Below, piece by piece: positions 9,921-43,109 of a stretch of DNA of 64,000 nt. The translations under genes were made by a program, and so were the position numbers. The stretch covers positions 1 through 64,000 of the forward strand of contig JBBIIG010000020.1 of the NCBI GenBank assembly GCA_037446635.1, written 5' to 3'. This stretch comes from a bacterium (GTDB taxonomy: Bacteria > Zhuqueibacterota > Zhuqueibacteria > Oceanimicrobiales > Oceanimicrobiaceae). Below the pieces are notes generated by a model. That model did no database searches, was not told the origin of the DNA, and worked only from the letters and a program-made list of their open reading frames with translations. Every line of letters begins with the position of its first letter. The first letter of the stretch is position 1.

Positions 9921-11318
9921 ATGTTAAAAAAACTGTGGATTTTGTTTCTGCTTGCGCTGGTGCTGCCGGCGCTGCTTTATTCCCAGAGTTCGGGCAACTT
10001 CTCCACCAGCCTACACGCGACGCGCGCCGGCAAAGCAACGTGGTACAGCAAAGACAACGGCGGATTTGAGACGCTCACCAACATCCCCATGGACTCGCTG
10101 GCGTGCAACAAGTGTCATGGCCCAACCTTCGCCGATGGCACCCCCATCGACAACGAAACCTATGCCCCTGGCTGCAACGACTGCCACAACTTCCCCCAGG
10201 GAACCGCGGTGCAGCAATCCACCTGTTTGGGGTGCCACAGCCGGCAGGCGGCGGAAATTAATTTGTCAGCATCGAATCCCATTTACACCGACGTCCACCG
10301 CGACAAAGGCCTGACCTGCACCAGCTGCCACACCACCCGCGAGATGCATGGCGACGGCACGGCTTACGCCTCCATGAGGGAACCCGGCGTGTTCGACGCC
10401 GCGTGCACCAACTGCCATCCGGAAGCCACCCTGGCCGACAATCAAGCTCATAATCTCCACAAAGATGATGTGTACTGCACCGCCTGCCACACCCAAACCG
10501 TCTCCACCTGCTTGAGCTGCCATTTTGAAAGCGAATTGGATGGTTTCAAGCGCTATTACAATCAAGCGCCCGTGGGCGGCTTTGTGATGCTGGTGCGGCG
10601 CCCGCAGGACGGCAAAGTGGTGACCGCCTCCTATCAATCTTTGACCCACAACGGCAACAGCTTCTACGCCATCGGTATTTTTCACGGGCACACCATCAGT
10701 AAAGAAGCGCGCGCTTGCACCGATTGCCACAATACGGAAATCGTCAACGCCTATAAAACCTCGGACGAAATTCCGGTGGTCCACTGGGACAACAATGACA
10801 GCAAGCTCGTCCATACTCAGGGCGTGATTCCAGTGCCCCCGGATTGGCAGCAGGCTCTGCAATTAGATTTCGCTACCTACACCGGCAACACCACCGATCC
10901 CCTCAAGCCCTTCGACCCGACGAAATGGATTTATCAGGAAACCGGCGCCGACGGCAGCCATATACTCTACGCCGATCCGCTCACCGCGGAACAAATGGAC
11001 AAATTAGCGATGAACGTGGTCTCGGTGGAAGATGGCAGTACTCCTCTGCCGGAGAAATTCGAGCTAGTGCAGAACTACCCCAACCCGTTTAACCCCAGTA
11101 CCAACATCGAATTCCGGCTGGCGAAGACCACGCAGGTAACGCTGAAAATCTACAACCTGCTGGGTGAAGAAATCCAGACCCTGCTTTCGAAAGAAACTCT
11201 GAGCGCGGGGACGCACAAATACAGCTTCCGCGCCGACGGCCTGCCCAGCGGCATTTATGTGTATAAAATAGAAACTCCGGAGTTTACCCAGGTCCGGAAG
11301 ATGACCCTGCTCAGGTAG
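9921..11318 (+). CDS. Octaheme cytochrome c with signal peptide and T9SS type A C-terminal sorting domain
   Basis: Start moved to ATG 9921 (GGAG RBS); 8 CxxCH; QNYPNPFNPST...IYNLLG...LPSGIYVY...RKMTLLR. Confidence 0.88.
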   Translation: MLKKLWILFLLALVLPALLYSQSSGNFSTSLHATRAGKATWYSKDNGGFETLTNIPMDSLACNKCHGPTFADGTPIDNETYAPGCNDCHNFPQGTAVQQSTCLGCHSRQAAEINLSASNPIYTDVHRDKGLTCTSCHTTREMHGDGTAYASMREPGVFDAACTNCHPEATLADNQAHNLHKDDVYCTACHTQTVSTCLSCHFESELDGFKRYYNQAPVGGFVMLVRRPQDGKVVTASYQSLTHNGNSFYAIGIFHGHTISKEARACTDCHNTEIVNAYKTSDEIPVVHWDNNDSKLVHTQGVIPVPPDWQQALQLDFATYTGNTTDPLKPFDPTKWIYQETGADGSHILYADPLTAEQMDKLAMNVVSVEDGSTPLPEKFELVQNYPNPFNPSTNIEFRLAKTTQVTLKIYNLLGEEIQTLLSKETLSAGTHKYSFRADGLPSGIYVYKIETPEFTQVRKMTLLR

Positions 11319-11344
11319 TATCAAACTGTATCGAAAAATCTGAT

Positions 11345-11381
11345 CAGAGCGTGGATGCTTTCGTCCACGCTCTGTTATTTT
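11345..11381 (+). terminator. Rho-independent terminator
   Basis: CAGAGCGTGGA/TCCACGCTCTG hairpin followed by TTATTTT. Confidence 0.65.
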
Positions 11382-11436
11382 AAAACACAGCATTCAAAAA
11401 AATCGCCTACCCTAATTAATTTTTGGAATTGGAAGC

Positions 11437-15370: not shown

Positions 15371-15470
15371 ACTTCAGGAAAAATTTCTCGCTGGTATTCT
15401 TTCCCCTTTCTTAAGCCACGACCATATAATAACAGGCACTTACTAATAGATGGGAGACCGCAACTTTTTA

Positions 15471-15487
15471 TGGCATATCTTTTGGAT
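15471..15487 (+). promoter_or_regulatory. Sigma54-like promoter
   Basis: TGGCATATCTTTTGGAT (GG-N10-GG) upstream of the 15555 start. Confidence 0.55.
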
Positions 15488-15554
15488 ACCTCCTATCATC
15501 AAAGCTAAATCCAACCACCGCTTCAACCAGTCACAAAATCGGAGGAAAGTAGCC

Positions 15555-16823
15555 ATGAAAAAAAGAATTTTAGTAAGTGCAGCTGCGACCTTCCTGGTGT
15601 TGGTTTTGGTTCTTGCCATCAGCTCGATTTCAGTAAAAGACGCGCAGGCCATTCCCGCCTGGGCGCGCAAGTACCAAACCAGTTGCTCCACCTGCCATTA
15701 TGCCTTCCCAATGCTTAACGGCTTTGGGAAAGCTTTTGAGAATAATGGCTATCGCTATCCGGGTGGGGACGAGAACTATCGCAAAGAAGAACCAACCAGC
15801 TTAGGTTCCGAGAGTTATAAAAAAGTGTGGCCGGACGCCATTTGGCCGGCAGACATTCCCGGATTACCCCCACTGGCCATTCATGCCATCGGGCGCATTA
15901 ATTACGAGCCCGATGCGGATGTCAAATCCAGTTTTGAGCTCCCCCATGAATTGGAGATTCTTTATGGTGGAACCATCGGCGAGACTGTTTCCTTTTTTGG
16001 CGAAGTGGAAATCGAAAACGAGGACAATGAAATCGAATTTGCCTTCCCGTTCTTTTTACAGTGGGATTTTAATCCGCGCTGGCACATCAGAGTTGGCAAC
16101 GTTTCACCTGACCCGACGCCGACCCACATGCGATTAACGCGCAACCACTACAATGTCGCCAGCTTTAGAAGTCGCAACCGCGTGCGTTTGCGGGACGAGC
16201 ATTCGGGCATCGAGTTCTGGGGCGCGGGCAATGGCGCCGGTGGTCGGGGCGGCTATCGTTTCCAATTGGGGGTAGTGAACGGCCAGGGGAGAAATGACGT
16301 GAACAGCGAAAAAGATATTTATGGCCGAGTCACCTACAAAATTGGCGGTCTGGGGGAAATTGGCGGTACCGAGGGTCAGGAAAGCGAAACCGCCGAATTT
16401 TATGTGGATAATAATTTGCGTCTCGGAGGCTTCTTCTATATTGGCACGGCCACCCAAAATGATGTCGATGAAGATTTTCAAATATTCGGCGGCGACGTGG
16501 ATTTTTGGTGGAATCGCTTGATACTAAATGGCGCGGTCCTGTATATGAACTCGGAATTGCCAGGTACCCCGGACCGCCAGTCTCTGGTCTGGTACGGTCA
16601 AGGCAACTATGTGATTTATCCCTGGCTTATTGGCCTGGCGCGGTTTGAGTTTACCGATTCTAATTTAGATATCGACGTACCAGAAGCGCAAAAATCGCTC
16701 ATTCCCGGGCTGACATTTGTGGCCAGGGCAAATGTCCGCTTCACCCTGGAATATTTCATACCTTTGGATGACCCCAGTAAGGATGCCGACCTGTTTGTTA
16801 TGCAGGCGCAGTTTGGATTTTAG
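15555..16823 (+). CDS. cyc2: Cyc2-like fused monoheme cytochrome-porin (outer membrane)
   Basis: Start moved to 15555 (GGAGG RBS); signal peptide then IPAWARKYQTSCSTCHYAFPMLNGFGKAFENNGY, matching the Cyc2 N-terminal pattern; beta-strand-rich body ending in Phe. Confidence 0.75.
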   Translation: MKKRILVSAAATFLVLVLVLAISSISVKDAQAIPAWARKYQTSCSTCHYAFPMLNGFGKAFENNGYRYPGGDENYRKEEPTSLGSESYKKVWPDAIWPADIPGLPPLAIHAIGRINYEPDADVKSSFELPHELEILYGGTIGETVSFFGEVEIENEDNEIEFAFPFFLQWDFNPRWHIRVGNVSPDPTPTHMRLTRNHYNVASFRSRNRVRLRDEHSGIEFWGAGNGAGGRGGYRFQLGVVNGQGRNDVNSEKDIYGRVTYKIGGLGEIGGTEGQESETAEFYVDNNLRLGGFFYIGTATQNDVDEDFQIFGGDVDFWWNRLILNGAVLYMNSELPGTPDRQSLVWYGQGNYVIYPWLIGLARFEFTDSNLDIDVPEAQKSLIPGLTFVARANVRFTLEYFIPLDDPSKDADLFVMQAQFGF

Positions 16824-17609: not shown

Positions 17610-19481
17610 ATGCTGACTAAACCCGTAAACACCGATTGGCTGCAAAAAAATTTCCCCTGCTACTGGGCTTGTCCCGTGCACACCGAAGCCGGGCGGTATG
17701 TGAACTTGATTGCCCAGGGGCGGTTTGAGGAAGCCTATCGCGTGGCGCGGGCACCTAATCCATTTGCCTCCATTTGTGGTCGCATCTGCGCGGCACCGTG
17801 CGAAACCGCCTGTCGTCGCGGTCAATTGGATAAGCCCATTGCCATTCGGGCGCTGAAGCGATTTGTCTGCGAGCGCTACGGCGTGGAAAGCATGATCGAT
17901 ATTCGCAAAATTTATGAAGCCCTTGGTCCTAAAATTAAACCTAAGAATCGTTGGGTGGCCGTGATAGGTTCCGGTCCGGCGGGCATGTCCTGCGCTCATG
18001 ATCTGGCCCTCCTGGGGTATAAAGTAACCGTCTTTGAGAAACAAGAACGACCCGGCGGCATGTTGACTCTGGGAGTACCCGAATATCGACTGCCGCGCGA
18101 GTTGGTGCGAATGGAGATCAATGCTATCCTGAGCCTGGGCGTTGAGCTCAAATTGGGCAAAGCCTTGGGCCGGGATTTTACTTTGCAGGATTTAAAAGAA
18201 AACGGCTACGAGGCGGTATTTCTGGCGATTGGGGCGCATAAAAGTCGGGATCTGCAAATCGAAGGCGTGGAATTGGACGGGGTTTTGCGCGCAGTGGATT
18301 TTCTTTTGAATATCAATATGGGCTACAAAGTTGAATTGGGTGAAAAGATCATTGTGATCGGAGGAGGGAACGTCGCCATCGATGTAGCCCGTACCGCGGC
18401 GCGTCTGGAACGCATCGAGGAAGTGGCTTCCGATATCACCGAGGCGTTGGATGTGGCGCGTTCGGCTGTCCGGTTCGGCGCCAAAGAAGTGCACATGGTG
18501 GTTTTGGAAGCACGCGATGAAATGCTGGCAACCGAGGAAGAGATTGCGGAGGCGATAGAAGAGCGCATTCAGATTCACAACTCTTTGGGCCCCAATCGAA
18601 TTCTGGGCAAAAATGACAAGGTCAGAGGATTGGAGACCATTAAGTGCGTTTCCGTGTTTGATGAAAACGGCCGCTTTAATCCCAAATTTGCGCCCGGAAC
18701 CGAACAGGTTTTGGCGGCGGACTCCATCATCATGGCCATTGGCCAAACCTCCGATCTGTCATTTATTCGGCCGGAAGATGGAATTGAGATGACACCGCGC
18801 AACACCATAAAAGTGGATCCGGTGACTCTGGCCACCACCGCTCCCGGCATCTTCGCTGGCGGCGATGTGGTGTTTGGCCCGCGCATCGCCATTGATGCCA
18901 TCGCCGACGGCCGACGGGCTGCCCGCGCCATCGATGAATATCTCACGGGGCAAAAACAAGAAGAGCGGAAAATTTACGTCACGGTTTACGATACCTTTGA
19001 ATATGAGCAGCAGCCGGATTTTGAGAAAGTTGATCGCGTGCCCATTCCCGTGCTGCCAATCGATCGTCGCGTGGGCGTGGCGCAAGTGGAATTAGGCTAT
19101 ACCGAAGAGCAGGCGGTTTTAGAGTCCCGGCGCTGTCTGCGTTGTTGGATCAATACGGTCTTTGAACCACGGGAAGAACTGGGAACCGAATGCATCCTCT
19201 GCGGCGGCTGCGTGGATATTTGTCCTGAAAACTGCATTGAACTGATTTCAATCGAGAGGCTCGTGAGTGATCCGGAAACCATGGCCGTGTTGGAGCGCTC
19301 CGAAGATTTCATCTTGGGACGCAGGCAAACGGTCACCGGCGAAGAAATCGAAGGTGCAGTGATGATTAAAGACGAAACCATCTGCATCCGCTGCGGCTTG
19401 TGTGCCAAGCGTTGTCCGGTGAGCTGTATAAAAATGGAAGGATTTGAAATGGCAGAAAGGGTCCTCTATGAATGGGAATAA
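17610..19481 (+). CDS. FAD/NAD(P)-dependent Fe-S oxidoreductase (GltD/NfnB/DsrL-like) with C-terminal ferredoxin domain
   Basis: CYWACP, CGRICAAPCETAC, GSGPAG, GGGNVA, FAGGD, CLRC, CILCGGCVDICP, CIRCGLCAKRCP. Confidence 0.9.
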   Translation: MLTKPVNTDWLQKNFPCYWACPVHTEAGRYVNLIAQGRFEEAYRVARAPNPFASICGRICAAPCETACRRGQLDKPIAIRALKRFVCERYGVESMIDIRKIYEALGPKIKPKNRWVAVIGSGPAGMSCAHDLALLGYKVTVFEKQERPGGMLTLGVPEYRLPRELVRMEINAILSLGVELKLGKALGRDFTLQDLKENGYEAVFLAIGAHKSRDLQIEGVELDGVLRAVDFLLNINMGYKVELGEKIIVIGGGNVAIDVARTAARLERIEEVASDITEALDVARSAVRFGAKEVHMVVLEARDEMLATEEEIAEAIEERIQIHNSLGPNRILGKNDKVRGLETIKCVSVFDENGRFNPKFAPGTEQVLAADSIIMAIGQTSDLSFIRPEDGIEMTPRNTIKVDPVTLATTAPGIFAGGDVVFGPRIAIDAIADGRRAARAIDEYLTGQKQEERKIYVTVYDTFEYEQQPDFEKVDRVPIPVLPIDRRVGVAQVELGYTEEQAVLESRRCLRCWINTVFEPREELGTECILCGGCVDICPENCIELISIERLVSDPETMAVLERSEDFILGRRQTVTGEEIEGAVMIKDETICIRCGLCAKRCPVSCIKMEGFEMAERVLYEWE

Positions 19482-19950
19482 ACCTGACAAACAAAAATTG
19501 CTCTCCCGACGAGAATTCTTGAACACGATGGGTACCGGCGCGTTGGTGATCGCTGGGGTAGGCGGCACCGCGGTCTCCTGGGATTACCTGTCGCCCAAGG
19601 TGCTCTTTGAACCCCCGCTAAAATTTAAGGTGGGAAAGCCAGAAGGCTATGCCCCGAATTCAGTAACATTAGATGCTGAGAAAAAGATTTTTATTGTTCG
19701 GGAAGAGCAGGGGTACTTTTATTGCCTGTCTGCAGTGTGCACCCATCTCGGCTGTCTGACCTATTGGAGGGGTAACGAAGAACGGATTGCCTGCCCCTGC
19801 CACGGGAGCAACTTCACCCGGCACGGTGAAGTCTTAAAACCGCCGGCGCCGCGCGACTTACCCCATTTTCTAATTACTCTCGACGATAAAGGGGAGCTGG
19901 TGGTGGATAAAAGTGAAATGGTGAGTGCGGATTATATTTTAAAGGTATAA
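19468..19950 (+). CDS. Rieske 2Fe-2S subunit, module 1
   Basis: SRREFL Tat-like anchor, CTHLGC, CPCHGS; start set at ATG 19468. Confidence 0.92.
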
Positions 19951-19951
19951 A

Positions 19952-20692
19952 ATGGCCCGGAATCTGATTGAAAAAGTGGTTCAGTCGCAGCCTTGGAAAT
20001 CGATTTTCCGAACCGGCGTTCCCGAATCCAATTTGGATAAGTCGCTGTTGATTTTCAATAACTTTTTCTTTCATATTTTCCCAGTTAAGGTGCGGCGGGA
20101 TTCGCTAAAATTTTCGGCCACCCTGTATTTAGGGGTTGCGGCCTTTGCGTTATTTATGATACTGGTGATCACCGGCATCTATCTAATGTTGTACTATCAT
20201 CCCTCGGTGCCGCAAGCTTACAATGATATGAAGGATCTAGAGTTTGTGGTGGCGAATGGCCGCTTCATTCGCAATTTTCACCGCTGGGCCGCCCACGGTA
20301 TGGTAGCCGTGGTGTTTTTACATTTACTGCGCGTATTTTTTGCGGGCGCCTACAAACCGCCCAAGCAATTCAACTGGGTGATTGGCGTGATGCTTTTTCT
20401 GCTGACGCTGCTGCTCAGCTACACTGGATATCTTCTGCCCTGGGATCAGTTGGCCCTGTGGGGCATTTCCGTGGGAACCAACATGCTGGGGTACGCCCCA
20501 TTACTGGGACAAAAGCTGCGCTTCCTGCTTTTAGGGGGAAACATCGTCGGGGAAAATGCACTGCTGCGCTTCTACGTGCTGCATGTGTTCATTTTGCCAG
20601 TGGTCATGACCGTTTTGATAGGCATCCATTTCTGGCGGGTGCGCAAGGACGGTGGAATTACACCTTTGCTGAAACGGAGGCCGAAAGGGTAA
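19952..20692 (+). CDS. Cytochrome b6-like N-terminal subunit, module 1
   Basis: [35 protein letters not shown]. Confidence 0.92.
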
Positions 20693-20697
20693 GAGTC

Positions 20698-21405
20698 ATG
20701 AATCTGGATCAAGATTTTAAACTCGAAGAAATTGTGGAACCGCTGCAGGTTCCGAAACGGGTGGCTTTTGTAAAAAAAGACACCAGCGCTCTGGTTAAAG
20801 AAGCAGCAGAAAAAGACCAGGTATTGAGTTACCCGCCGCTTCTGCTTAGCCTGCTCATCGGCTTTGAGATCTTGGTAATTATTTTAGCGATTTTTTCCCT
20901 CATCATCGATGCGCCGCTGGAGGAGCTGGCCAATCCCGAGCATACGCCTAACCCGGCCAAGGCGCCGTGGTATTTTCTCGGATTACAGGAACTCCTGCAC
21001 CTCTTTCCACCTTTTGTTGCCGGAGTGTTGATTCCTACTTTGGTCATTATCGCACTGGTGGTCATTCCCTATTTTGATATCAATCTCAAACGTGAAGGGT
21101 TGTGGAAAAGTCAGCAGCAGGCAACTTTCCTTTGGTTAACAGGGGTGGCTTTGGTTCTGGTCGTGGGATTGGCGTTTTTTTCAGCCTGGTCGATCGCGAT
21201 TCCAACCATTTTGATTTATGGTCTTATGATTCTTCCTTATGCGATCAAAAAAGAAACGAGATTCAGCGCATGGCTGAGTCGTCTTTCATTAGCCGAATGG
21301 GTCATGATTTGGTTTGTCCTGGTCGCCACCATCTTGACCACCATCGGAATTTTGTTCCGCGGCCCGGGCTGGGAATGGACCTGGCCGTGGCAGGGGATTT
21401 ATTAG
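20698..21405 (+). CDS. Cytochrome b subunit IV-like protein, module 1
   Basis: Start set at ATG 20698; ANPEHTPNPAKAPWYF (PEWY-equivalent loop). Confidence 0.85.
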   Translation: MNLDQDFKLEEIVEPLQVPKRVAFVKKDTSALVKEAAEKDQVLSYPPLLLSLLIGFEILVIILAIFSLIIDAPLEELANPEHTPNPAKAPWYFLGLQELLHLFPPFVAGVLIPTLVIIALVVIPYFDINLKREGLWKSQQQATFLWLTGVALVLVVGLAFFSAWSIAIPTILIYGLMILPYAIKKETRFSAWLSRLSLAEWVMIWFVLVATILTTIGILFRGPGWEWTWPWQGIY

Positions 21406-21611
21406 TCGCATGTAAAAATTTGACCGATATTTTTACTGTACAAAACGGGAAGAGGAATTAATCAATCGGAGTATTGGATTAGTGGATTAATGGAATAAAA
21501 GACAGATGAGTTTGAACAAAGTTGGGTCAATGAATTTCTAATGATCCACTATTTCAATATTTCTCGGGGTAATTAATAGTCTAATAAATATATCAAAAGG
21601 AGGGAAATCCC

Positions 21612-22121
21612 ATGGGACTGTTTTTCTCGGCCTTCGTTGGTGGCCTGGCAGGTACCGGTTTGATGGACATCGTGGAAAGCCTTATGAAGCGATTCGGGAT
21701 CACGAGTGGGAGCGGTTGAGGAGGCAACCGGGCCATCGGTCGATGGCTCTTGCATGCCGTTCGTGGAACGTTCGTACACAAGAACATCATTGAGGCTAGG
21801 CCCGTCAAACATGAGTCCACCGTTGGCCAGGTGACTCATTATCTTCTCGGTGGTAGTCTCGCACTCTCGTATCCTGCCTTCTACCTCGTCTCTAGTGCAC
21901 CGCTACCAGACAATCACGTGCTTCCTAGTCTCTTATGGGGCCTGGCGACAACGCTTCTGCCATGGATCATCTTCTATCCTGCGTTCGGTTGGGGCCTCTT
22001 CGGCGTAGGAGCCCCTCAGGGCACGAGACCTGTACTCTCGCCGACGATTTCCCATCTGGTTTACGGCCTTGGATTGGGAATCGTTTTGAATATAACGAAC
22101 TTTCTTCGGGGTGCTGTCTAA
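21612..22121 (+). CDS. DUF2938-like membrane protein with in-frame UGA at codon 36 (candidate selenoprotein, or nonsense pseudogene)
   Basis: AGGAGG RBS, ATG 21612; GLAGTGLMD...FGITSGSG-UGA-GGNRAIGRW...HY...HLVYGLGL; the frame continues into ORF 21750-22121. Confidence 0.7.
21730..21749 (+). promoter_or_regulatory. Candidate bacterial SECIS hairpin
   Basis: GGGCCATC-GGTC-GATGGCTC, 8-bp stem starting 11 nt after the UGA (21717-21719). Confidence 0.55.
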
Positions 22122-22148
22122 CAAGCGGATGAGCCGCGACGACAAAAC

Positions 22149-22469
22149 ATGAAGGGAGTGAACAGTGGATACAACCGGATACTTTGTCGAAATGCAAAAC
22201 AAGTTGCTTTTCAAGCCATGCATGCAAGATTCCAGGCAATAGAGGAAACATGCATGAATTGTCATGATACGGAAAGACACTACTATGTTGATGAAAGCGT
22301 TAAGGCAATGATCGATAAGCTGGGACAAACACTCAGTGCATCTCCAAGTTGATCCGAATATGGTGGACAAGTTGAGTCAGGAAATTGGGATGAGAATTGT
22401 TTCAAGTGCCATCTGGTTCATGTACCCGCAGCAGCAGCGCAACTGCAAATGGCTAATTTAATTAATTAA
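22149..22469 (+). pseudogene. Frameshifted remnant of a c-type cytochrome
   Basis: CMNCHDTERHYYVD in one frame, then VDPNMVDKLSQEIGM and NCFKCHLVHVPAA in shifted frames; no signal peptide or 5' part. Confidence 0.65.
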
Positions 22470-24427: not shown

Positions 24428-24432
24428 AAGCG

Positions 24433-24912
24433 ATGAGGATTTTAAAATTAGGGATCGGACTACTTTTTTTCGTATCTTGTCGGCAAAGCCAGAATATCCG
24501 ACAAGAACAAACCACCCCGGCAGATACGTTAATTAGCGCACAGGTGGAATCGAAAAAAATAAATTTGTTGGATTTATCTTATTCTCAACGAAAAGGTAAA
24601 CTTCTTTATGACAAATATTGCGCCGTATGTCATGGGTTAGAGGGAAAAGGCGATGGCTTTAACGCATACAATTTAGATCCAAAACCCAAAGACTTTAATG
24701 ATGCCGATTACTTAGAGTCTATAACCGATGCCTGGTTGGTAGAAGTGATCACCCAGGGCGGGCGCGGGGTAAAGCGATCGGTCTTAATGCCAGCCTATGA
24801 AAATACCTTGACTCGCGAAGCCTCTGAAGACATTGTTAAATATCTTCGCTTTCTTGCGAAGAAAGAACAGAGCAACAGCTCTTTCATTGAACCCCACCGC
24901 GACCCCTTCTAA
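24433..24912 (+). CDS. Monoheme cytochrome c lipoprotein
   Basis: FFVSC lipobox-like, CAVCHG.EGKGDG, LMPAY. Confidence 0.85.
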   Translation: MRILKLGIGLLFFVSCRQSQNIRQEQTTPADTLISAQVESKKINLLDLSYSQRKGKLLYDKYCAVCHGLEGKGDGFNAYNLDPKPKDFNDADYLESITDAWLVEVITQGGRGVKRSVLMPAYENTLTREASEDIVKYLRFLAKKEQSNSSFIEPHRDPF

Positions 24913-32052: not shown

Positions 32053-33300
32053 ATGAAACGCTACTGGTTCTTAACACTTCCGTTTTTCTTCGCTTTTTCA
32101 TCCTTGGTTCAAGCTCAGCAATGTGTGGATTGTCACAAACAGGCGACGCCTGGTATTGTCTCCGATTGGCAGTTGAGCAAACACAGTCTTAACGAGATCA
32201 CCTGTTCGGTCTGTCATGGCGAAGACCACACCTCGGCGAACGATGTGGCCAAAGCGCAAATTCCCACCCCGGAAACCTGCGCCCAATGTCACGAAGAACG
32301 CGTCGAGCAATTTAAACGCGGCAAACATGCTTTCGCCTGGGCCGCGATGAACGCCATGCCCACCACGCACTGGCTGCCCATGGCGCTGCGTGAAGGTATG
32401 AAGGGCTGCGGCGGCTGCCACAAAATCGGTCTAAAAAGCGCAGACGAAATCAAAGCTCTGAAGCAGCAAGGCGCGGGCTTCGGTGTGGCTTCCTGCGATG
32501 CCTGCCACACGCGCCATACTTTCTCGCTCGCGGAGGCGCGACAGCCGCAGGCTTGCCAAACCTGTCACATGGGATTTGATCATCCGCAATGGGAGATGTA
32601 TTCTGCCTCCAAACACGGCGTCCGCTATTTGTTGAAGCAAAACGGCGTTCTGCCCGAAACCGCGGCGGCGCCCACTTGTCAGACCTGCCACATGCAGGAC
32701 GGCAACCACGCCGTCATGACCGCCTGGGGATTTTTAGCGGTGCGTTTGCCCCTGCCCGAAGACCAACAATGGAAAGATGATCAGGTCACGATTTTACAGG
32801 CGCTGGGGGTGCTCGATCCTCAGGGCCAGCCCACCGCGCGCCTGGAGGTGGTAAAAGGGGCCAAAGTCGCTCGACTCAGCCAGGAGGAATGGCAAGAACA
32901 ACGCGATAAAATGCTGGCTGTGTGCAGCCAGTGTCACTCCGAAAACTTTGCCAGGGCCGAATTGGCAAAAGGCGACCAGATGATTCGCGAAAGCGACCAC
33001 CTGCTCGCCGAAGCCATCCGCAGCATTGCCGCACTTTATAAAGATGAAATTTTGAAGAAACCCGAAAACTACGCTTATGCGTTTCCAGATTTGTTGACCT
33101 TCCATGACGCCCCCACGCCCATTGAGCAGAAATTGTTTGTGATGCACCTGGAACACCGCATGCGGGCGTTTCAGGGAACCTTCCACGCCAATCCGGATTA
33201 CGCCCTTTGGTACGGCTGGAGCGAGATGAAGCGCGATTTGACGGAAATCCAAACCCTGGCGGAAGAACTACGAAAAAATCATCAAACCAAGAAAGACTAA
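32053..33300 (+). CDS. Octaheme hydroxylamine-oxidoreductase-like cytochrome c (soluble, periplasmic)
   Basis: 8 CxxCH, CHTRHTFS, CHMGFDHPQWEMY..SKHG, APTCQTCHM, FHANPDYALWYG. Confidence 0.85.
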   Translation: MKRYWFLTLPFFFAFSSLVQAQQCVDCHKQATPGIVSDWQLSKHSLNEITCSVCHGEDHTSANDVAKAQIPTPETCAQCHEERVEQFKRGKHAFAWAAMNAMPTTHWLPMALREGMKGCGGCHKIGLKSADEIKALKQQGAGFGVASCDACHTRHTFSLAEARQPQACQTCHMGFDHPQWEMYSASKHGVRYLLKQNGVLPETAAAPTCQTCHMQDGNHAVMTAWGFLAVRLPLPEDQQWKDDQVTILQALGVLDPQGQPTARLEVVKGAKVARLSQEEWQEQRDKMLAVCSQCHSENFARAELAKGDQMIRESDHLLAEAIRSIAALYKDEILKKPENYAYAFPDLLTFHDAPTPIEQKLFVMHLEHRMRAFQGTFHANPDYALWYGWSEMKRDLTEIQTLAEELRKNHQTKKD

Positions 33301-33303: not shown

Positions 33304-34167
33304 ATGCGAACCACGTTTCCATTTGCCGTAGTTGTTGTCTTCGCGATGATGTTGTGGAGTAGCTGCAGCGAGCTGCGCGATCCGCTTCCCACCAACTCGC
33401 CGGCGGTGATTTCGGGGGTGCACCCAGCGGGCTGGGTGCAGGTGGGCGCGCAGAATTTCCACGGGCTTTTCATCGCGAATTCGCTCCGTTGGGATTTGCG
33501 AAATTGCCAGGCCTGCCACGGCCAGAATTACGCCGGCGGCATCGCCAACAGTTCCTGCTTGACCTGCCATCCCAATACGCCGGAAGATTGCACGGTCTGC
33601 CACGGCGGAACGGACAACCAGACCGGCGCACCTCCAAGAGACCTGGCTGACAACACCAACACCACGGCCCGCGGCGTTGGGCAGCACACCCTGCATCTCG
33701 CCGGTGGAGATATCGCAAACCCTACGGAATGCACCACCTGCCATGTGGTTCCAACCTCGCTTTATTTCGCCGGCCACATTGACTCCGACTTACCGGCCGA
33801 GCTGACTTTTACCGGCTTGGCGCTTGCAGACGGCGCCGCACCCTCCTACAACAGCGGCGCGGGAAGCTGCGCCAACTCCTACTGCCACGGCAACTGGAGC
33901 CTCCCCCGAGCGCAATCACAATTGAGTGGGTTTTACACCGCTGATTTCATTCAGGGCAACGCCCTCGCCCCGGGCTGGACCGACCCCGCCACCGGCGCGT
34001 GCGGAACCTGCCACAGCCTGCCGCCGACCGGCCACATTCCCGCCGACCTCAGCGGCTGCGATAATTGCCACAGCGGGGTGGTGGACAACGATGGCAACAT
34101 TATCGACAAAAGCAAACATGTGAATGGAATGGTGAACGTGTTCGGACAGGAGTATCCGATGTTTTGA
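33304..34167 (+). CDS. Multiheme cytochrome c lipoprotein with CxxxxCH/CxxCH domain
   Basis: WSSC lipobox-like; 6 CxxCH + CANSYCHG; KHVNG. Confidence 0.85.
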   Translation: MRTTFPFAVVVVFAMMLWSSCSELRDPLPTNSPAVISGVHPAGWVQVGAQNFHGLFIANSLRWDLRNCQACHGQNYAGGIANSSCLTCHPNTPEDCTVCHGGTDNQTGAPPRDLADNTNTTARGVGQHTLHLAGGDIANPTECTTCHVVPTSLYFAGHIDSDLPAELTFTGLALADGAAPSYNSGAGSCANSYCHGNWSLPRAQSQLSGFYTADFIQGNALAPGWTDPATGACGTCHSLPPTGHIPADLSGCDNCHSGVVDNDGNIIDKSKHVNGMVNVFGQEYPMF

Positions 34168-34202
34168 ATAAAAGAAATCAATAACAGAAAAGGAGATGCA
34201 TC

Positions 34203-34772
34203 ATGCGTAAATTTCTTTTGTTTTCGTTTTTGGTTATCTTAAGCGTTGGGCTGACTTTCCAGAATTCGACCGCCCAGCAAAAAACCGATGCCGCTGATTT
34301 CCAGTACGGCGGTGTGATCACTTGTAAGCCCTGCCACCTGACTCCTAAAAGCGGCGCGCAATTTAAAATCTGGTCCACCAGCGCTCATGCAAAAGCTTAC
34401 GAAACGCTCAAGACTCCGGCAGCAAAAGAAGCCGGCAAAAAATTGGGCATCGATGATCCGGCAACTTCAGATAAATGTTTGAAGTGCCATGTCACGGCGC
34501 ACGGCGTGGACGCCAAGCTCAAAGGTCCGAAATTGACCCTTGAAGAAGGGGTGAGCTGCGAAGCCTGCCACGGCCCCGGTTCCGCCTATAAAGGCCAGAA
34601 ACTTATGAAGGACATTTACGACGGCAAAGTCGATGGCGCCAAATATGGTTTAATTGAACCCACGGAAGAAGTCTGTGTGAAGTGCCACAACAAAGAGAGT
34701 CCGACTTTTAAAGGGTTCAATTACAAAGAAATGGCAGCTAAAATTGCGCATCCGGTTCCGAAGGCTCAATGA
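34203..34772 (+). CDS. Tetraheme cytochrome c554-family protein
   Basis: CKPCH, W..SAHAKAY, CLKCH, GVSCEACHGPGS, CVKCH. Confidence 0.85.
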   Translation: MRKFLLFSFLVILSVGLTFQNSTAQQKTDAADFQYGGVITCKPCHLTPKSGAQFKIWSTSAHAKAYETLKTPAAKEAGKKLGIDDPATSDKCLKCHVTAHGVDAKLKGPKLTLEEGVSCEACHGPGSAYKGQKLMKDIYDGKVDGAKYGLIEPTEEVCVKCHNKESPTFKGFNYKEMAAKIAHPVPKAQ

Positions 34773-34938: not shown

Positions 34939-35403
34939 ATGAACAGTGCACAAAATCAGGCGCAAGAACAACCAACGTTGCCGCGCCGAAAATTCGTCAA
35001 TCTTTTGTTGGGCGGCGGCTTGTTGACCACCATTGGATCGATCTTCGTTCCCATCATTAATTTTATCATTCCACCGAAAATTCAAGAAGCGGTGCAGAAC
35101 AGCGTGGTGGCAGCCAAAGTGGGCGAACTGCCCCTCAATTCCGGCAAAATTTTTCGCTTTGGCGTCAAGCCCGGAATTTTAATTCATACCCAAAACGATG
35201 AATATGTTGCCTTTTCCGCTATCTGCACCCACCTCGATTGCACCGTTCAGTACCGCTCCGATTTTAAACATATCTGGTGCGCCTGTCATAACGGACACTT
35301 TGACCTCACCGGCAAAAACATCGCCGGGCCGCCGCCGCGGCCATTGGAATCTTATAAGGTAGATATTCGCAATGAGGACATCGTTGTCACCCGAGAAGGA
35401 TAA
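34939..35403 (+). CDS. Rieske 2Fe-2S subunit, module 2
   Basis: PRRKFV, CTHLDC, CACHNG, GPPPRPL. Confidence 0.92.
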
Positions 35404-36496
35404 AACTGCCCAACGTTCCGGGCGCGGGCTGGCCGCCTGGCTGCGCGAGCGATACGATCTCAGCGCTCTGGAGTACTTCATCAAAAAGAAGGAAGTGCCG
35501 CTCCACCGTCACAGCATCTGGTACTACTTCGGCGGCATCACCCTCTTCTTTTTTATGATTCAGGTGGCCACGGGCATTTTGCTGCTGCTTTATTATCGCC
35601 CGACTGCCGAGGCGGCGTTTGAGAGCGTGCAATTCATCATGACCGAGGTGCGCTTTGGCTGGCTCATCCGTTCCATCCACAGTTGGTCCGCCAATTTGAT
35701 GATCGCCGCAGCGTTCGTTCATCTGTTCAGCGTGTTTTTTCTGAAAGCCTATCGCAAGCCGCGGGAGTTGACCTGGGTGAGCGGCGTGTTTTTGCTTTTC
35801 CTCTCGCTGGGGTTTGGCTTTTCCGGTTATTTGCTGCCCTGGAACGAGTTAGCGTTTTTCGCCACCAAGGTCGGCACCGAAATTGTGGCGGTGGTGCCGC
35901 TCATTGGCGGTTTTTTGTTGAAGTTTCTGCGCGGCGGCGAAGATGTCACCGGCGCCACCCTCACCCGCTTCTTCGGTTTTCATGTGGCCGTGCTGCCCAT
36001 GATTTCCACTGTGCTGCTGCTGTTCCACCTCTGGGCCGTTCAGAAACAAGGCATGAGCGTGCCATTAAAATTGGAAAAAGACGGCGCGCCCTACAAAACC
36101 ATGCCCTTCTTTCCCAACTTCCTGCTGCGCGATCTGTTAGGCTGGATTTTGGCGCTCGGCGCGCTGGCAGCAATTGCCGCCCTCTTCCCGTGGGAATTAG
36201 GAGTCAAAGCCGATCCCTTTGCCCCGGCGCCCGCCGGCATCAAGCCGGAATGGTATTTCGTGTTTATGTTTCAGACGCTCAAATTCATACCGGCAAAAGT
36301 TTTGGGATTGGACGGGGAAATGTTAGGGGTACTGGCTTTCGGTTTGATCGGCGCTTTATTGGTTCTGGTGCCCTTTCTGGATCGCAAAGGCCAAATTGGC
36401 GAATCCAGCAAAATACTCGGGGTGCTGGGAATCGTCAGTTTGGTTTATATCATCATTATGACCATTGTCTCGTACGTCGTGCCGCAGACGTTTTGA
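35372..36496 (+). CDS. Cytochrome b (fused b6 + subunit IV), module 2
   Basis: [33 protein letters not shown]. Confidence 0.93.
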
Positions 36497-36558
36497 GCCT
36501 GAATAATTCACGAAGCACTGCCATTCAGGATAAGATATTAATCAAACCCGATCTTGAC

Positions 36559-37854
36559 ATGAAAAAAATCGGATACATTCTTTCGTTTATACTAATCGGT
36601 TGCGGCGCAACAGCTTTCGCTCAGGAGCCGGCTCGCGCTGAAAAAGTAAACAGTTGCGTCTCCTGCCATTTGGAGATGGGAGACGAACTCGCCGTGCCCG
36701 TGGAGGGCATGAAAGAAGACGTGCATGCCCAACAGGGACTCTCCTGCGCCGACTGCCACGGCGGGGATCCCACCGCTGGGCTCGATGGCGATATGGAAGC
36801 GGCTAAGAATCCAGCCAAAGGTTTCGTCGGGAAGCCCGAACGCACGGCCATTCCACAGTTTTGTGCCCGCTGCCACAGCGATCCGAACTATATGCGGCGC
36901 TTCAATCCCAGAGCCGCCACCGATCAACTCAGCGCCTATAAAACCAGCGTTCACGGCCAACTCTTGCAAAAAGGCGACACCAAAGTCGCCGTTTGCACCG
37001 ATTGCCACGGCGTGCACGGCATCCGCAACGCCAAAGATGCGCGCTCGTCGGTTTACCCGCTGAACATCCCCGCGACCTGCGGCCGCTGCCACGCGGACGC
37101 CGAGTACATGAAAGATTACAGCATCCCGACAGATCAGATCGAGCAATATCAAACCAGCGTTCACGGCAAAGCGCTGTTGGAAAAAGGCGATCAGGCCGCG
37201 CCAGCCTGCAACGATTGTCACGGCAATCACGGCGCGACGCCGCCGGGCGCGCCCACCATCGCGTTTATTTGCGGGCAGTGTCATCTCAACAACAGCGAAT
37301 TATTTTTCGCCAGCCCCCATCGCGCCGCGTTCGATGAAATGGGTTTGCCCGAGTGTGAAACCTGTCACGGCAACCACGGCATCCAACACCCCACCGATTC
37401 AATGTTAGGCGCGGGCCCGGAAAGCATTTGCACCGACTGCCACGAAGAGGGTTCGCCGGGATGGCTCACCGCCGCCGCCATGCGCGAGCAAATCGAAAAT
37501 TTGAAAAGCCAGATTTTTGTTGCCGACAGTCTGGTGGCGAAAGCCGAACGCGCCGGCATGGAAGTCAGCGAAGCCAAATTTCAATTGCATGACGCCGACG
37601 ACGCCCTCATCAAATCCCGCACCATGGTGCACAGCCTTTCGGAGGAACGCATCACCGAAGTTACCAGCGAAGGAATGAAATTAGCCGAAAGCGCTTTGAC
37701 CGCCGGTCGAGCGGCGCTGGCAGAATTGCAATTTCGCCGCAAGGGTTTAGCCATCTCGATTATCTTCATTTTAATATTGGCCGCCGGATTGTATCTCAAA
37801 ATCAAAGAAGTCGATCAAAAACATCCGATTCGGAGCGCGCAGCGTGGCGAGTAA
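36559..37854 (+). CDS. Nonaheme cytochrome c with C-terminal membrane anchor
   Basis: Start set at ATG 36559 (signal peptide MKKIGYILSF); 9 CxxCH with SVHG repeats; C-terminal TM. Confidence 0.87.
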   Translation: MKKIGYILSFILIGCGATAFAQEPARAEKVNSCVSCHLEMGDELAVPVEGMKEDVHAQQGLSCADCHGGDPTAGLDGDMEAAKNPAKGFVGKPERTAIPQFCARCHSDPNYMRRFNPRAATDQLSAYKTSVHGQLLQKGDTKVAVCTDCHGVHGIRNAKDARSSVYPLNIPATCGRCHADAEYMKDYSIPTDQIEQYQTSVHGKALLEKGDQAAPACNDCHGNHGATPPGAPTIAFICGQCHLNNSELFFASPHRAAFDEMGLPECETCHGNHGIQHPTDSMLGAGPESICTDCHEEGSPGWLTAAAMREQIENLKSQIFVADSLVAKAERAGMEVSEAKFQLHDADDALIKSRTMVHSLSEERITEVTSEGMKLAESALTAGRAALAELQFRRKGLAISIIFILILAAGLYLKIKEVDQKHPIRSAQRGE

Positions 37855-39516: not shown

Positions 39517-39750
39517 AATCCGAAATCCGAAACTCGAAATCCGAAACAAACTCAAAATAGCAAAGTCAATCAAATTCAAAACATGATACCAATTGACGCC
39601 GTGAGCAGACCGCGATAAAAGTCCACTGGGAGCTGAAGGGACGAGATGACGACGCTCTTATTCGATATTTGAAATTCGTATTTGTTTCGGGTTGCGGATT
39701 TTCCGCCAAAGGCGGATTGGCCTCCGGCCGACGACATTCAAATTTTCAAA
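39517..39750. repeat. Hairpin element of AATCCGA/TCGAAAT heptamer arms with a nested CCGCCAAAGGCGG palindrome
   Basis: aatccgaaatccgaaactcgaaatccgaaac ... gtttcgggttgcggatt; related arm near 56780-56850. Confidence 0.7.
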
Positions 39751-39782
39751 CTATCCCCAATATTTGAGACACACAAAAGAAA

Positions 39783-41309
39783 GTGAGTGTTATGCAGAAG
39801 CCCAAACGGTTACCCAGTCTTTTTTATAATCCAATCAGCATGTTTGGCGCTGTGTTCGCCATCGTCAATTTTGTGGCGATTGTGACGCTGGTTTTGTTGG
39901 ACGCGATTTTGGGCCTCGCGCCGTATGCCGGCATCATCGCGTTTATCATTTTGCCGGCGTTAATGATTTTGGGGCTGATTTTCATTCCCGGCGGAATGTT
40001 TGTTGAGCGTCGCCGCCGCACCCGCCACGCCGGGGAAGAAAAGCCCCGCGCCTTTTACATCGATTTCGGCCGGCCGTCACATCGTTTTGCCAGTATCATC
40101 TTTGCTTCCGGCACGATCATTTTTATTTTGTCCACCGCCGTCGGCAGTTACCGCGCCTACGAATTCACCGAATCGGTCACCTTTTGCGGGCAAATTTGCC
40201 ACTCGGTGATGGAACCGGAATTCACCGCCTACCAGAATTCGCCGCACGCGCGCGTCACTTGCGCCGAGTGTCACGTGGGGCCGGGCGCCGGCTGGTTTGT
40301 GCGTTCCAAGCTTTCGGGCGCTTATCAGGTTTATGCCACTACCTTTAATTTATATCCCAGGCCCATACCCACTCCCATCAAAAATTTGCGCCCGGCGCGG
40401 GAAACGTGTGAAGCCTGCCACTGGCCGGAAAAATTTCACGGCTCCCAGGAAAAAATTTTCGACCATTACATGGTGGACGAAGAAAACACCAAGTGGAGCA
40501 TCCGCATGTTGATCAAAACCGGCGGCGGCAGTAAAGAAGCCGGCATCGCCGAGGGCATTCACTGGCACATGAACATCGCCAATGAGATCGATTACATCGC
40601 CACCGACGAACAGCGCCAGCAAATTGCCTGGGTGCGCATGAAAGACATGCACGGCAACGTGCGCGAATTCATTAACCAGGATAATCCCATCGCGCCGGAA
40701 GAGATGGGCAACTACGAAATGCGTCGCATGGACTGCATCGATTGCCACAACCGCCCGACGCATATTTATCACTCTCCCAGCAAAGCGCTTAACCTGGCGT
40801 TTAGCGGCGGCAAAATCGATCCAACTCTGCCCAGCGCCAAGCGCATCGCCATTGAGGCGCTGATTGCGGAAGAGTATCCCAGCGCGGATTCGGCGGCCAT
40901 CGCCATCGCGCAAAAAATTCGCGCCTCGTACGAGAGTGAGTATCCGGACATTTTGGAAACGCGCGCCGGCGCCATCGACAGCCTGATTGCTGCGGCGCAG
41001 GAGATTTATCGCAAAAACTTTTTCCCCAAAATGAAAGTGCGCTGGGATGCTTATCCCGATAACATCGGCCATTTTTTGAGCCCCGGCTGCTATCGCTGCC
41101 ACAACGGCCGCATGGTGAGCGAGGACGGCGCGGTCATCGCCAATGATTGTCGCAGCTGCCATATCATTTTATCTCAGGGGCCGCCTTTGGAAACCGACAG
41201 CCAGAGCATTAGCCCCGAGGGTCTGGAGTTTGAGCACCCGGTGGACATCGACGAGGCGTGGAGAGAGATGGCGTGCAGCGATTGCCACACGGGGACATCG
41301 CAACTTTAA
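39783..41309 (+). CDS. Extended NapC/NirT-family membrane cytochrome c (6 CxxCH + 1 CX3CH)
   Basis: Three N-terminal TM; TESVTFCGQICHSVM, SPHARVTCAECHVG, CEACH, then 4 more motifs. Confidence 0.85.
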   Translation: MSVMQKPKRLPSLFYNPISMFGAVFAIVNFVAIVTLVLLDAILGLAPYAGIIAFIILPALMILGLIFIPGGMFVERRRRTRHAGEEKPRAFYIDFGRPSHRFASIIFASGTIIFILSTAVGSYRAYEFTESVTFCGQICHSVMEPEFTAYQNSPHARVTCAECHVGPGAGWFVRSKLSGAYQVYATTFNLYPRPIPTPIKNLRPARETCEACHWPEKFHGSQEKIFDHYMVDEENTKWSIRMLIKTGGGSKEAGIAEGIHWHMNIANEIDYIATDEQRQQIAWVRMKDMHGNVREFINQDNPIAPEEMGNYEMRRMDCIDCHNRPTHIYHSPSKALNLAFSGGKIDPTLPSAKRIAIEALIAEEYPSADSAAIAIAQKIRASYESEYPDILETRAGAIDSLIAAAQEIYRKNFFPKMKVRWDAYPDNIGHFLSPGCYRCHNGRMVSEDGAVIANDCRSCHIILSQGPPLETDSQSISPEGLEFEHPVDIDEAWREMACSDCHTGTSQL

Positions 41310-41474
41310 ATAAAAGTGTATCGGGGAAAGGAGGTGAACCCAAAAAATTCTGATTACTAAACTTTAATCAAACAGGAGGTGAACCCCAAAACATACTTTT
41401 TTTATCACTCTGTATTTTAAAGTTAACGGATGAACTTCCAATCAACTAATCTTTTCTTCGAAAGGAGTTTAACC

Positions 41475-43109
41475 ATGAAAAGGGGTTTTGTTTTTTTGCT
41501 AAGCACAGCCTTCTTGCTTGCATGGTTAAGTGTGAGTCCCGCACAGGATTTGACCTACAGAGGAGTGGCCGCTTGTCAGCCGTGCCACTCGGGACCGCCA
41601 GGAGGCGACCAATTTAACTTTTGGAAAAACACGGCGCACGCTGAGGCCTATGATTTAACAGGCGCTTTCGTGCAGAGAACCGCCCGCTGTTTGGAATGCC
41701 ACACCACCGGCTGGGATACCACCGCCACTAACGACGGCGCAGATGATTTTGTGAGCGTTACCGAACCCTACAGCGGCAATTTCAACGTTACCATCACCGA
41801 TTCAACGGAGTTTTTTAAGAAGACCAACGTCCAATGCGAGTCGTGCCACGGCCCGGCATCAGCCCATGTGGCCGGAGCCTTTCAACAACCACCGGTGCTC
41901 CCTCCTTCTGACCCTAGACCAGCTGAAACCTGCGGCGAGTGCCACCAGGGCGAACACACGCCTTATCTCGAAAACTGGTTGGCATCAAAACATGCGGTTT
42001 CGGACACCAACGCCAGCGCCTTTTTGCAGGGCCGCTTTCGAAACGATCCCAACTGTTCGGGCTGTCATACCTTTCAGGGATTTATACAATTTGTTGGCAC
42101 AACCCCGGAAGATACCACCAACATTATCCCAAATGTTGACCCGCCCGGCAACGCTTCCCTGCCGCTGGTGTGCGCCGCCTGCCACGACCCCCACGACGCC
42201 AAGCACGAAGGGCAACTGCGGTTGGAGGTGGTGGATTTGTGTGTGAAATGCCACAATCCCGAGGATGCCGAGCCGCCGGATAACCCGCATCACTCCACTT
42301 CTTCTATGTTTGCCGGGAGCGGCGCGGCCGAAATTCCGGGATTTGATTACACCCGGCAGTCAGCGCACCAAGTTTTGCCGTTGACTCAAGAAAAAAAATG
42401 CGTGGCCTGCCACGTATTCATGACGGAATTCAGCGACAACGGCACGCCAGGCGATCCCTCGGATGATATTCTGGCCAACACCGGGCACACTTTCTTCCCG
42501 CGCATCGAAGCGTGTTCACAAGCAGGTTGCCATGAAACCGGGCTGGATATTCCGCCGGGCTCGCCATTCGAATTTGACCACCGCGGCCGGCGCACTTTTA
42601 CCCAAGGGCTCATCGACAGCCTGGCCGCCATCATTGCCGAGATCGAGCAAAATGTGCTGACGCCGGAAGATTCGCTGGATTACCAGATCGGGCTGTTTAA
42701 CTTGCGGTTCGCTCAGAATGAAGGCAGCATCGGCGTGCACAACCCGGAATATGCCCAGGATATTCTGGAAAGCACCATCGCTTTTCTCGACACCGCCATC
42801 GTCACCTCGGTGGAACCGTTCCCGGATCCCACCGCCGGCCTGCCGCAGCGGTTCGATCTCTATCAAAACTACCCCAACCCGTTCAACCCCAGCACAACTA
42901 TTCGTTTCGACGTGCCGGAACGGGCACACGTGAAATTGGTGGTGTACAACGCCCTCGGCCAGGAAATCGAGACGCTGGTGGATCAGGAGCTGGCGGCCAA
43001 CAGCTACAAAGTCGATTTCAACGCGGCCAGCTTGCCGTCCGGAATTTATTTCTATCGCATTATTGCAGACCAATTTGTGACCACGAAAAAGATGTTGCTT
43101 TTGAAGTGA
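41475..43109 (+). CDS. Multiheme cytochrome c (8 CxxCH + 1 CX4CH) with T9SS type A C-terminal domain
   Basis: Start moved to 41475 (AAGGAG RBS); EGSIGVHNPEY; QNYPNPFNPST...LPSGIYFY...KKMLLLK. Confidence 0.88.
   Translation: MKRGFVFLLSTAFLLAWLSVSPAQDLTYRGVAACQPCHSGPPGGDQFNFWKNTAHAEAYDLTGAFVQRTARCLECHTTGWDTTATNDGADDFVSVTEPYSGNFNVTITDSTEFFKKTNVQCESCHGPASAHVAGAFQQPPVLPPSDPRPAETCGECHQGEHTPYLENWLASKHAVSDTNASAFLQGRFRNDPNCSGCHTFQGFIQFVGTTPEDTTNIIPNVDPPGNASLPLVCAACHDPHDAKHEGQLRLEVVDLCVKCHNPEDAEPPDNPHHSTSSMFAGSGAAEIPGFDYTRQSAHQVLPLTQEKKCVACHVFMTEFSDNGTPGDPSDDILANTGHTFFPRIEACSQAGCHETGLDIPPGSPFEFDHRGRRTFTQGLIDSLAAIIAEIEQNVLTPEDSLDYQIGLFNLRFAQNEGSIGVHNPEYAQDILESTIAFLDTAIVTSVEPFPDPTAGLPQRFDLYQNYPNPFNPSTTIRFDVPERAHVKLVVYNALGQEIETLVDQELAANSYKVDFNAASLPSGIYFYRIIADQFVTTKKMLLLK

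Follow-up and report, generated by a model that had tools for sequence, protein, structure and literature searches.

How might multiheme cytochromes reach the cell surface in a diderm bacterium of the phylum Zhuqueibacterota? This question is raised by the first 64,000 nucleotides (forward strand) of contig JBBIIG010000020.1 in GenBank assembly GCA_037446635.1, hereafter the window. It carries an island of redox genes, and four multiheme c-type cytochromes encoded there (P1 to P4) end in the same kind of C-terminal domain (CTD), the sorting domain of the secretion system called type IX (T9SS). Most of what is understood about extracellular electron transfer comes from Shewanella and Geobacter; to our knowledge, the placement of cytochromes beyond the outer membrane in other diderm phyla is largely unknown.

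Judged from their sequences, P1 to P4 are very probably T9SS cargo. To the joint proposal, namely that they are T9SS cargo and exchange electrons with the outside of the cell, we assign a probability of roughly 0.55. We infer that the four proteins would be exported, might lose the CTD by cleavage and would have a role in extracellular electron transfer; this interpretation is partly supported and is the best available reading of the locus. It joins T9SS sorting to surface multiheme cytochromes, both of them known, and constitutes no new category.

The assembly comprises 4.64 Mb in 110 contigs and is 97.3% complete. In NCBI naming, the lineage is candidate division KSB1, or Ca. Zhuqueibacterota, of the FCB group. 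The closest named relatives of P4 are KSB1 proteins with 73% and 63% identity. The phylum sample used below consists of 61 genomes including this one, and counts for other genomes of the phylum are out of 60.

Four cytochromes and their C-terminal domains

A sequence-only reading of the window had proposed that four multiheme open reading frames (ORFs) carry both a signal peptide and a T9SS-type CTD, and had named TIGR04183 as a check on the tails. All four are present on the + strand (Table 1), each with a good ribosome-binding site in front of the ATG. TIGR04183 matches the C-termini of P1, P2, P3 and P4 with 40.1, 45.4, 41.9 and 43.8 bits, respectively (curated cut-off, 23), and PF18962 matches them with 41.9, 42.5, 35.0 and 41.9 bits (curated cut-off, 27). 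The CTD match stops 2 to 4 residues short of the C-terminal end in each protein. The tails of P1 to P4 are bona fide type A T9SS CTDs. At the N-termini, a positive charge is followed by a hydrophobic stretch and an A-x-A/Q-type end, which was read by eye as a Sec signal peptide; residues 2-18 of P4 form an N-terminal helix in its AlphaFold2 model.

This arrangement corresponds to that of known type A cargos, such as RgpB of Porphyromonas gingivalis and NucA of Flavobacterium johnsoniae, which share the Sec signal and a C-terminal beta-sandwich sorting domain. In the P4 model, which was calculated from 76 sequences and has a predicted local distance difference test score (pLDDT) of 89.9, the CTD is a beta-sandwich of seven strands (residues 473-542). 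It matches the NucA CTD, the substrate domain in a T9SS translocon complex (8glk_D; TMt 0.65, root mean square deviation 3.7), and also the RgpB CTD (7pq4) and PorZ (5m11); the CTDs of NucA and RgpB superpose on that of the model. The known systems differ from the present one: the passenger here is a multiheme c-type cytochrome, the host lies outside Bacteroidota proper, and GldLMN was not detected. Reviews of the T9SS, as far as their available text goes, describe the cargos as virulence factors, adhesins and biopolymer-degrading enzymes.

Across the genome, 21 ORFs have at least four CxxCH motifs, 13 of them on the contig of the window. About 117 ORFs end in a C-terminal CTD when all stop-to-stop ORFs are searched with an iterated profile made from the four tails. 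Only four ORFs combine at least four CxxCH motifs with a C-terminal CTD, and all of them are within the window. Because of these numbers, and because the combination is kept in relatives, chance is no serious rival. It should be mentioned that a split-Soret cytochrome c-like protein (C23:20496-21635) is a fifth CTD cytochrome of the genome; its TIGR04183 score is 35.5 bits, and its score as a split-Soret-like protein, 171 bits, is below the cut-off of 400.

The CX4CH motif of P4 (C347/C352/H353) is invariant among 76 aligned relatives; P4 is therefore regarded as a nonaheme protein with nine heme sites. One of the two CX3CH motifs of P3 lies inside the EB_dh domain (PF09459, 74.1 bits, residues 596-890), where it may not bind heme c.

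The best sequence and fold matches of P2 to P4 are OcwA of Thermincola potens (6i5b) and the S-layer undecaheme cytochrome of Carboxydothermus ferrireducens (6qvm), both of which, to judge by their PDB titles, are multiheme cytochromes of the outer surface. The sequence matches to 6i5b have E values of 1.3e-6 for P2, 7.5e-13 for P3 and 7.5e-11 for P4, and P4 matches 6qvm with an E value of 5e-11. In a Foldseek search with the P4 model, 6qvm and 6i5b took ranks 1 to 3 (6qvm_A, E 3.9e-10; 6i5b, E 2.5e-9), with a template modelling score of about 0.5. However, P4 shares an identity of 17-18% with these proteins, which belong to a Gram-positive wall or S-layer, have no outer membrane to cross and carry no T9SS tail. 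The Fn3-like region of P2 matches 3mpc. P1 gave no good match in the PDB, including none to 6i5b or 6qvm.

A further likeness is to MtrC and OmcA of Shewanella. PF22113, which represents domains II/IV of MtrC/MtrF, is found above its cut-off in P2 (47.4 bits) and P4 (55.5 bits); this likeness concerns the domain only. MtrC and OmcA are lipoproteins exported by type II secretion. Unlike them, P1 to P4 have no lipobox cysteine at the end of the signal peptide, as judged by inspection of the sequences, and carry the T9SS CTD instead.

Relatives of P1 to P4 were sought with the cytochrome part alone (residues 1-460 of P4 and 1-915 of P3); thus, the CTD could not attract matches. The P4 core retrieved 1356 proteins at E <= 1e-5. 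Among the best 120 of these 1356, a C-terminal CTD was found in 115 with our own profile, and PF18962 in 110 according to precomputed annotation; of the five exceptions, four are 420 aa long and stop directly behind the heme core. The P3 core retrieved 207 proteins. The CTD is present without exception in the 31 closest relatives, whose identity goes down to about 40%, and overall in 63 of the best 120 of the 207. Within this family, the proteins with a CTD that are named by phylum all come from the FCB group (7/7: KSB1, Bacteroidota, Calditrichaeota, Ignavibacteria and Melioribacteraceae), whereas those without a CTD all come from elsewhere (5/5: Deltaproteobacteria, Anaerolineae, Omnitrophica, Thermoanaerobaculales and ANME-2). 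Nonaheme ORFs like P2, 880-950 aa long, were found in 15 of the 60 other phylum genomes; the CTD stands at the end in 11 of the 12 assessable ORFs, and four more run off the end of the locus. A full-length, CTD-bearing homolog of P1 (42% identity) is encoded in a metagenome-assembled genome titled Ignavibacterium album, and the cultured relative Stygiobacter electus 09-Me encodes a nonaheme CTD protein. The main strength of the proposal is that the tail is deeply conserved on three unrelated passenger architectures and is apparently restricted to FCB lineages.

The EB_dh domain of P3 also has relatives (32-40% identity) in 574-654-aa proteins with four CxxCH motifs, one of which is named by NCBI as coming from an ANME-2 cluster archaeon. 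ANME-2 is a group known for extracellular electron transfer.

Many relatives of P3 and P4 bear the NCBI label "T9SS type A sorting domain-containing protein". This means that the fusion is already visible in databases. On the other hand, no published account of T9SS-sorted multiheme cytochromes was found in a literature search of freely accessible texts, in agreement with the statement of the sequence-only reading that no characterised system of this kind was known to it. In the available text of a paper on Zhuqueibacterota (PMC11683472), the words "secretion", "extracellular" and "iron" do not occur, and a term search of the available text of a Melioribacter multi-omics paper (PMC5492636) gave nothing on secretion or extracellular cytochromes.

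A predicted conduit and a proposed route of electrons

Beside P4, an outer-membrane beta-barrel is encoded whose conserved partner is a 14-heme cytochrome (Table 1). Modelling and gene order suggest that this pair is likely to be a porin-cytochrome conduit. The AlphaFold2 model of the barrel (pLDDT 83) has 22 strands plus the signal helix. No Pfam or NCBIfam family matched the barrel, and its neighbours in a protein atlas are unnamed clusters and porin-like proteins only. Assignment to a family by fold was abandoned, because the PDB search gave generic outer-membrane barrels only.

A homolog of the 14-heme cytochrome directly adjoins the barrel in all of the fetched loci, 15 from the phylum and 20 from the class of Stygiobacter. 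Barrel homologs occur in 26 of the 60 other phylum genomes: in 15 of the 15 genomes with a CTD cytochrome versus 11 of the 45 others, a comparison that is descriptive, since the relatives are not independent. In 5 of the 15 phylum loci, a CTD cytochrome lies at most 1 kb from the barrel, on the side opposite to the 14-heme gene, and in 8 of 15 it lies within about 7 kb. In the class of Stygiobacter, the barrel is present in 41 of 61 genomes, and a cassette of tetraheme cytochrome, barrel, 11-14-heme cytochrome and 5-10-heme cytochrome was found in 20 of 20 fetched loci. This cassette is split in the window, with the six-heme and tetraheme genes standing apart (33304-34772). Around three distant full-length relatives, none of the other island genes was found within the fetched loci (up to 10 kb on each side); the locus of one other relative alone has a tetraheme cytochrome and a barrel fragment downstream. 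We read this as genetic attachment of the T9SS-tagged cytochromes to the conduit cassette that is frequent but not constant. The sequence-only reading had expected quinol modules and porins to feed the cytochromes from the same island; quinol modules are there, and so is the outer-membrane barrel with its cytochrome partners.

The arrangement follows a logic like that of MtrC/OmcA and MtrAB, in which a surface cytochrome is placed next to a barrel with a multiheme cytochrome inside. The window's barrel differs from that of MtrAB in its 22 predicted strands and in belonging to no recognisable sequence family. Closer in lineage, extracellular electron transfer by Ignavibacteria has been ascribed to porin-cytochrome (Pcc) clusters (Arbour et al. 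2020, PMC7399161, citing Shi et al. 2014 and Podosokorskaya et al. 2013). In these clusters, as far as the available text describes them, the barrel gene is flanked by multiheme cytochrome genes, as it is in the class of Stygiobacter and in the phylum of the window. Neither "secretion" nor "T9SS" occurs in that text. The present loci differ from those clusters in that T9SS-tagged cytochromes are added to the cassette.

From these components, the following route might be proposed. Quinol would be oxidised by the NapC-like, NrfCD-like and Rieske/cytochrome b modules of the island, and the electrons would then be carried by small periplasmic cytochromes. Passage across the outer membrane would fall to the barrel together with its 14-heme and six-heme partners. 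P1 to P4 would be loaded with heme in the periplasm and would then cross the outer membrane via the SprA/PorV translocon. They would be likely to remain on or near the cell surface, exchanging electrons with the outside. PorU might then remove the CTD and attach the proteins to a lipid, or else set them free. The cytochromes delivered in this way might form the outermost layer, which would contact minerals, electrodes or partner cells.

Table 1. Positions of the cytochrome, conduit and other genes in the window
Feature	Position	Strand	Remarks
P1, octaheme c-type cytochrome, 465 aa	9921-11318	+	8 CxxCH; CTD residues 386-461, about nt 11076-11318
P2, nonaheme cytochrome, 918 aa	25238-27994	+	9 CxxCH; extra N-terminal domain, Fn3-like region; CTD residues 840-916
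P3, heptaheme cytochrome, 1002 aa	28859-31867	+	7 CxxCH and 2 CX3CH; EB_dh (ethylbenzene-dehydrogenase-gamma-like) domain; CTD residues 924-999
P4, nonaheme OcwA-like cytochrome, 544 aa	41475-43109	+	8 CxxCH and 1 CX4CH; CTD residues 466-541
Outer-membrane beta-barrel, 427 aa	43179-44462	+	22 predicted strands; directly after P4
TauE-like gene	44649-45422		separates the barrel from the 14-heme gene
14-heme cytochrome	45693-46922	+	14 CxxCH; conserved partner of the barrel
Six-heme lipoprotein-like cytochrome	33304-34167	+	flanks the barrel/14-heme pair in relatives
Tetraheme c554-like cytochrome	34203-34772	+	flanks the barrel/14-heme pair in relatives
NapC/NirT-type membrane multiheme quinol dehydrogenase	39783-41309	+	PF03264, 44.3 bits; NrfH/TorC-like; N-terminal hydrophobic stretch; directly upstream of P4
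NrfC/HmcB-like Fe-S protein and NrfD/HmcC-like membrane protein fused to a c7-type triheme domain	5860-8353	+	quinol module; TIGR04257, 66.3 bits (cut-off 40); HmcC-like, 333 bits, below cut-off
Rieske/cytochrome b/membrane-anchored nonaheme module	34939-37854	+	one of three Rieske/cytochrome b modules in the island
Further Rieske/cytochrome b modules	19444-21405 and 47208-49101		
NapA and NapB-like tetraheme cytochrome	52465-55535	+	
Nickel-insertion and neighbouring genes	55566-59268	-	next to NapAB
Cytochrome-porin-like ORF, 457 aa	15450-16823	+	
Flavoprotein/Rieske/cytochrome b module	17610-24912	+	
HAO-like octahemes	32053-33300 and 49448-50944		
HAMP histidine kinase	1906-3480	+	
Response regulators fused to glycine-cleavage-H-like domains	3477-4259 and 4467-5633		after the HAMP kinase
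Small ORF, 127 aa	28457-28840	+	directly upstream of P3

Secretion genes and competing explanations

The sequence-only reading depended on a T9SS translocon, and SprA, PorV and PorU, plus a PorZ-like protein, are indeed encoded in the genome. SprA is a single ORF of 2056 aa, which TIGR04189 matches in pieces of 329, 295 and 210 bits (cut-off 200). PorU scores 865.8 bits (cut-off 420), and PorV scores 304 bits with the model of the PorV/PorQ family (cut-off 90). Directly after PorV, a T9SS-dependent M6-like inactivated metalloprotease is encoded (679 bits; cut-off 600). The PorV/PorQ family has 16 matches in this genome, that is, many paralogs, and PorV is present in 60 of the 61 phylum genomes. 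To go by these profile matches, the outer-membrane half of the T9SS is present, while motor and ring are either absent or too divergent to be recognised.

The points that weigh against the proposal concern the apparatus as well as the cargo. The GldLM motor and the ring are essential in the T9SS of Bacteroidota, and their lack here is the main weakness. The sequence-only reading had looked also to porK/L/M/N, and in this part it was disappointed: GldL, GldM and GldN were not found by profile searches of the genome, and the sole match to GldK/PorK, a lone FGE-sulfatase protein with 56 bits and no gldLMN-like neighbours, was rejected. GldM was found in none of the 61 phylum genomes and in none of 5 additional ones, that of Stygiobacter among them. 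In another sample, GldM exceeded its cut-off in 11 of 51 genomes, which means that the GldM search works; this positive control covers GldM alone, not GldL or GldN. Two of the outer-membrane components fall slightly under their own cut-offs, PorV with the equivalog model (242 versus 250) and the PorZ-like ORF (244 versus 260). Moreover, a secretin gene (204 bits, below the GspD cut-off) makes another export route conceivable.

On the side of the cargo, the octaheme core of P1 retrieved 503 representatives, and the CTD is present in 22 of the best 150 of them. Since this family is mostly devoid of the CTD (128/150), the tail of P1 is a lineage-specific addition. The panel of different redox proteins envisaged by the sequence-only reading is therefore retained in part: all four proteins have the CTD, but they do not make up one uniform panel, the core of P1 coming from that octaheme family. 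Of 20 barrel loci from the class of Stygiobacter, no more than 3 have a CTD cytochrome at a distance of up to 9 kb; accordingly, the link between CTD cytochrome and conduit is recurrent, not obligatory.

Given the missing motor, it might be supposed that the CTD is no working secretion signal in this phylum. Without GldLM/KN, the proteins would be periplasmic or just tethered to PorV-like barrels, and the CTD would act as an Ig-like interaction domain. The lack of GldM throughout the phylum sample under a valid positive control, the failure to find GldL and GldN in the genome and the 16 PorV/PorQ-family matches fit this explanation. We consider it very improbable nevertheless, as SprA, PorU, PorV and the M6-like protein are retained, PorV in nearly the whole phylum sample, and as the extreme C-terminus still carries the tail in about 117 proteins. 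In addition, the tail tracks the FCB lineages in the P3 family, a distribution that is difficult to account for unless the tail has a sorting function. Another possibility accepts export by the T9SS but regards the exported proteins as extracellular or surface enzymes that act on soluble compounds (nitrite, hydroxylamine, sulfite or peroxide, for example), and not as contacts to minerals or electrodes. After OcwA and 6qvm, the next Foldseek matches of the P4 model are NrfA-type nitrite reductases (2vr0, 2j7a and 1oah; E about 3e-4). P3 matches PF02335 (cytochrome c552) with 24.3 bits and has the extra EB_dh domain, and some of its relatives are named "ammonia-forming cytochrome c nitrite reductase subunit c552" by NCBI. 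However, the catalytic CxxCK motif was found in none of P1 to P4 on inspection of the sequences. Periplasmic reductases are present, so that there is no obvious reason for reduction outside the cell, and the CTD cytochrome recurrently adjoins the barrel-cytochrome cassette. Such an enzymatic function is judged improbable.

The same export might also serve electron flow in the reverse direction. In this case, Fe(II), reduced minerals, cathodes or partner cells would be the source of electrons, which would run inwards to nitrate, via NapAB, or to oxygen, while the Rieske/cytochrome b complexes would handle the energetics. NapA (1055 bits; cut-off 904) with its NapB-like tetraheme partner, the three Rieske/cytochrome b modules and the class I c-type cytochromes of the island are consistent with uptake, as is the ORF at 15450-16823, in which a single CxxCH motif is joined to a porin-like remainder and which resembles the fused cytochrome-porins of iron oxidisers. 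Reversed flow seems unlikely, though, since the nearest solved relatives of the cytochromes are terminal reductases of metal reducers, and since NapC-like and NrfCD-like modules typically oxidise quinol.

The surrounding island and the meaning of the proposal

Several other genes of the island should be described. The remainder of the cytochrome-porin-like ORF just mentioned ends in ...QFGF; the protein has a signal peptide, and its CxxCH motif is at residue 79. No family matched it, and its neighbours in the protein atlas are unnamed clusters and one Porin_O_P-like cluster. The module at 17610-24912 consists of a GltD-like NAD(P)-binding Fe-S flavoprotein, a Rieske protein, a split cytochrome b, an eight-heme protein with four c7-type and four class I domains, and a monoheme cytochrome. 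We take this layout to recall the anammox Rieske/cytochrome b complexes with NAD(P) oxidoreductase subunits. Two HAO-like octahemes are also encoded. The genes next to NapAB are for LarC-like nickel insertion, an AIR-carboxylase-like (LarB-like) protein, an ATP-pyrophosphatase-like protein and a DsbD_2/CcdA-like protein.

In the HAMP histidine kinase, the sensor part, predicted to be periplasmic, contains a single CxxCH and a single CX4CH motif; the kinase is possibly a heme-based redox sensor, and two response regulators follow it (Table 1). The small ORF in front of P3 resembles, by eye, a stand-alone receiver-type domain. The island has two sigma-54 activators. A search with the sigma-54 consensus found no site with at most one mismatch; the 61 sites with two mismatches showed no pattern upstream of the four cytochrome genes, and sigma-54 promoters for P1 to P4 were not considered further.

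If P1 to P4 are T9SS cargo that exchanges electrons with the outside, the cargo range of the T9SS would gain redox proteins with covalently bound cofactors. It must also be asked what drives T9SS-type export outside Bacteroidota, given that SprA, PorV and PorU are retained and GldLM is apparently missing. The proposal is directly testable, because the cultured Stygiobacter electus 09-Me encodes a homolog. For metagenomes, a CxxCH-rich protein with a TIGR04183 match would be a simple genomic marker from which this ability could be predicted. Export of this kind would also explain how FCB-group bacteria that are abundant on anodes and in iron-rich sediments could respire solids.

A wider form of the proposal can be offered tentatively, with the odds somewhat against it. 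Across the FCB group (Zhuqueibacterota/KSB1, Ignavibacteria, Calditrichota and some Bacteroidota), the T9SS might be a general route to the outer cytochrome layer, in which OcwA-like proteins would be loaded with heme, exported in folded form through SprA and mounted beside the 22-strand conduit; in the phylum of the window, this would occur without a canonical GldLM motor. If so, it would be a third route of diderm bacteria to minerals, besides type II-secreted lipoprotein cytochromes and cytochrome filaments.

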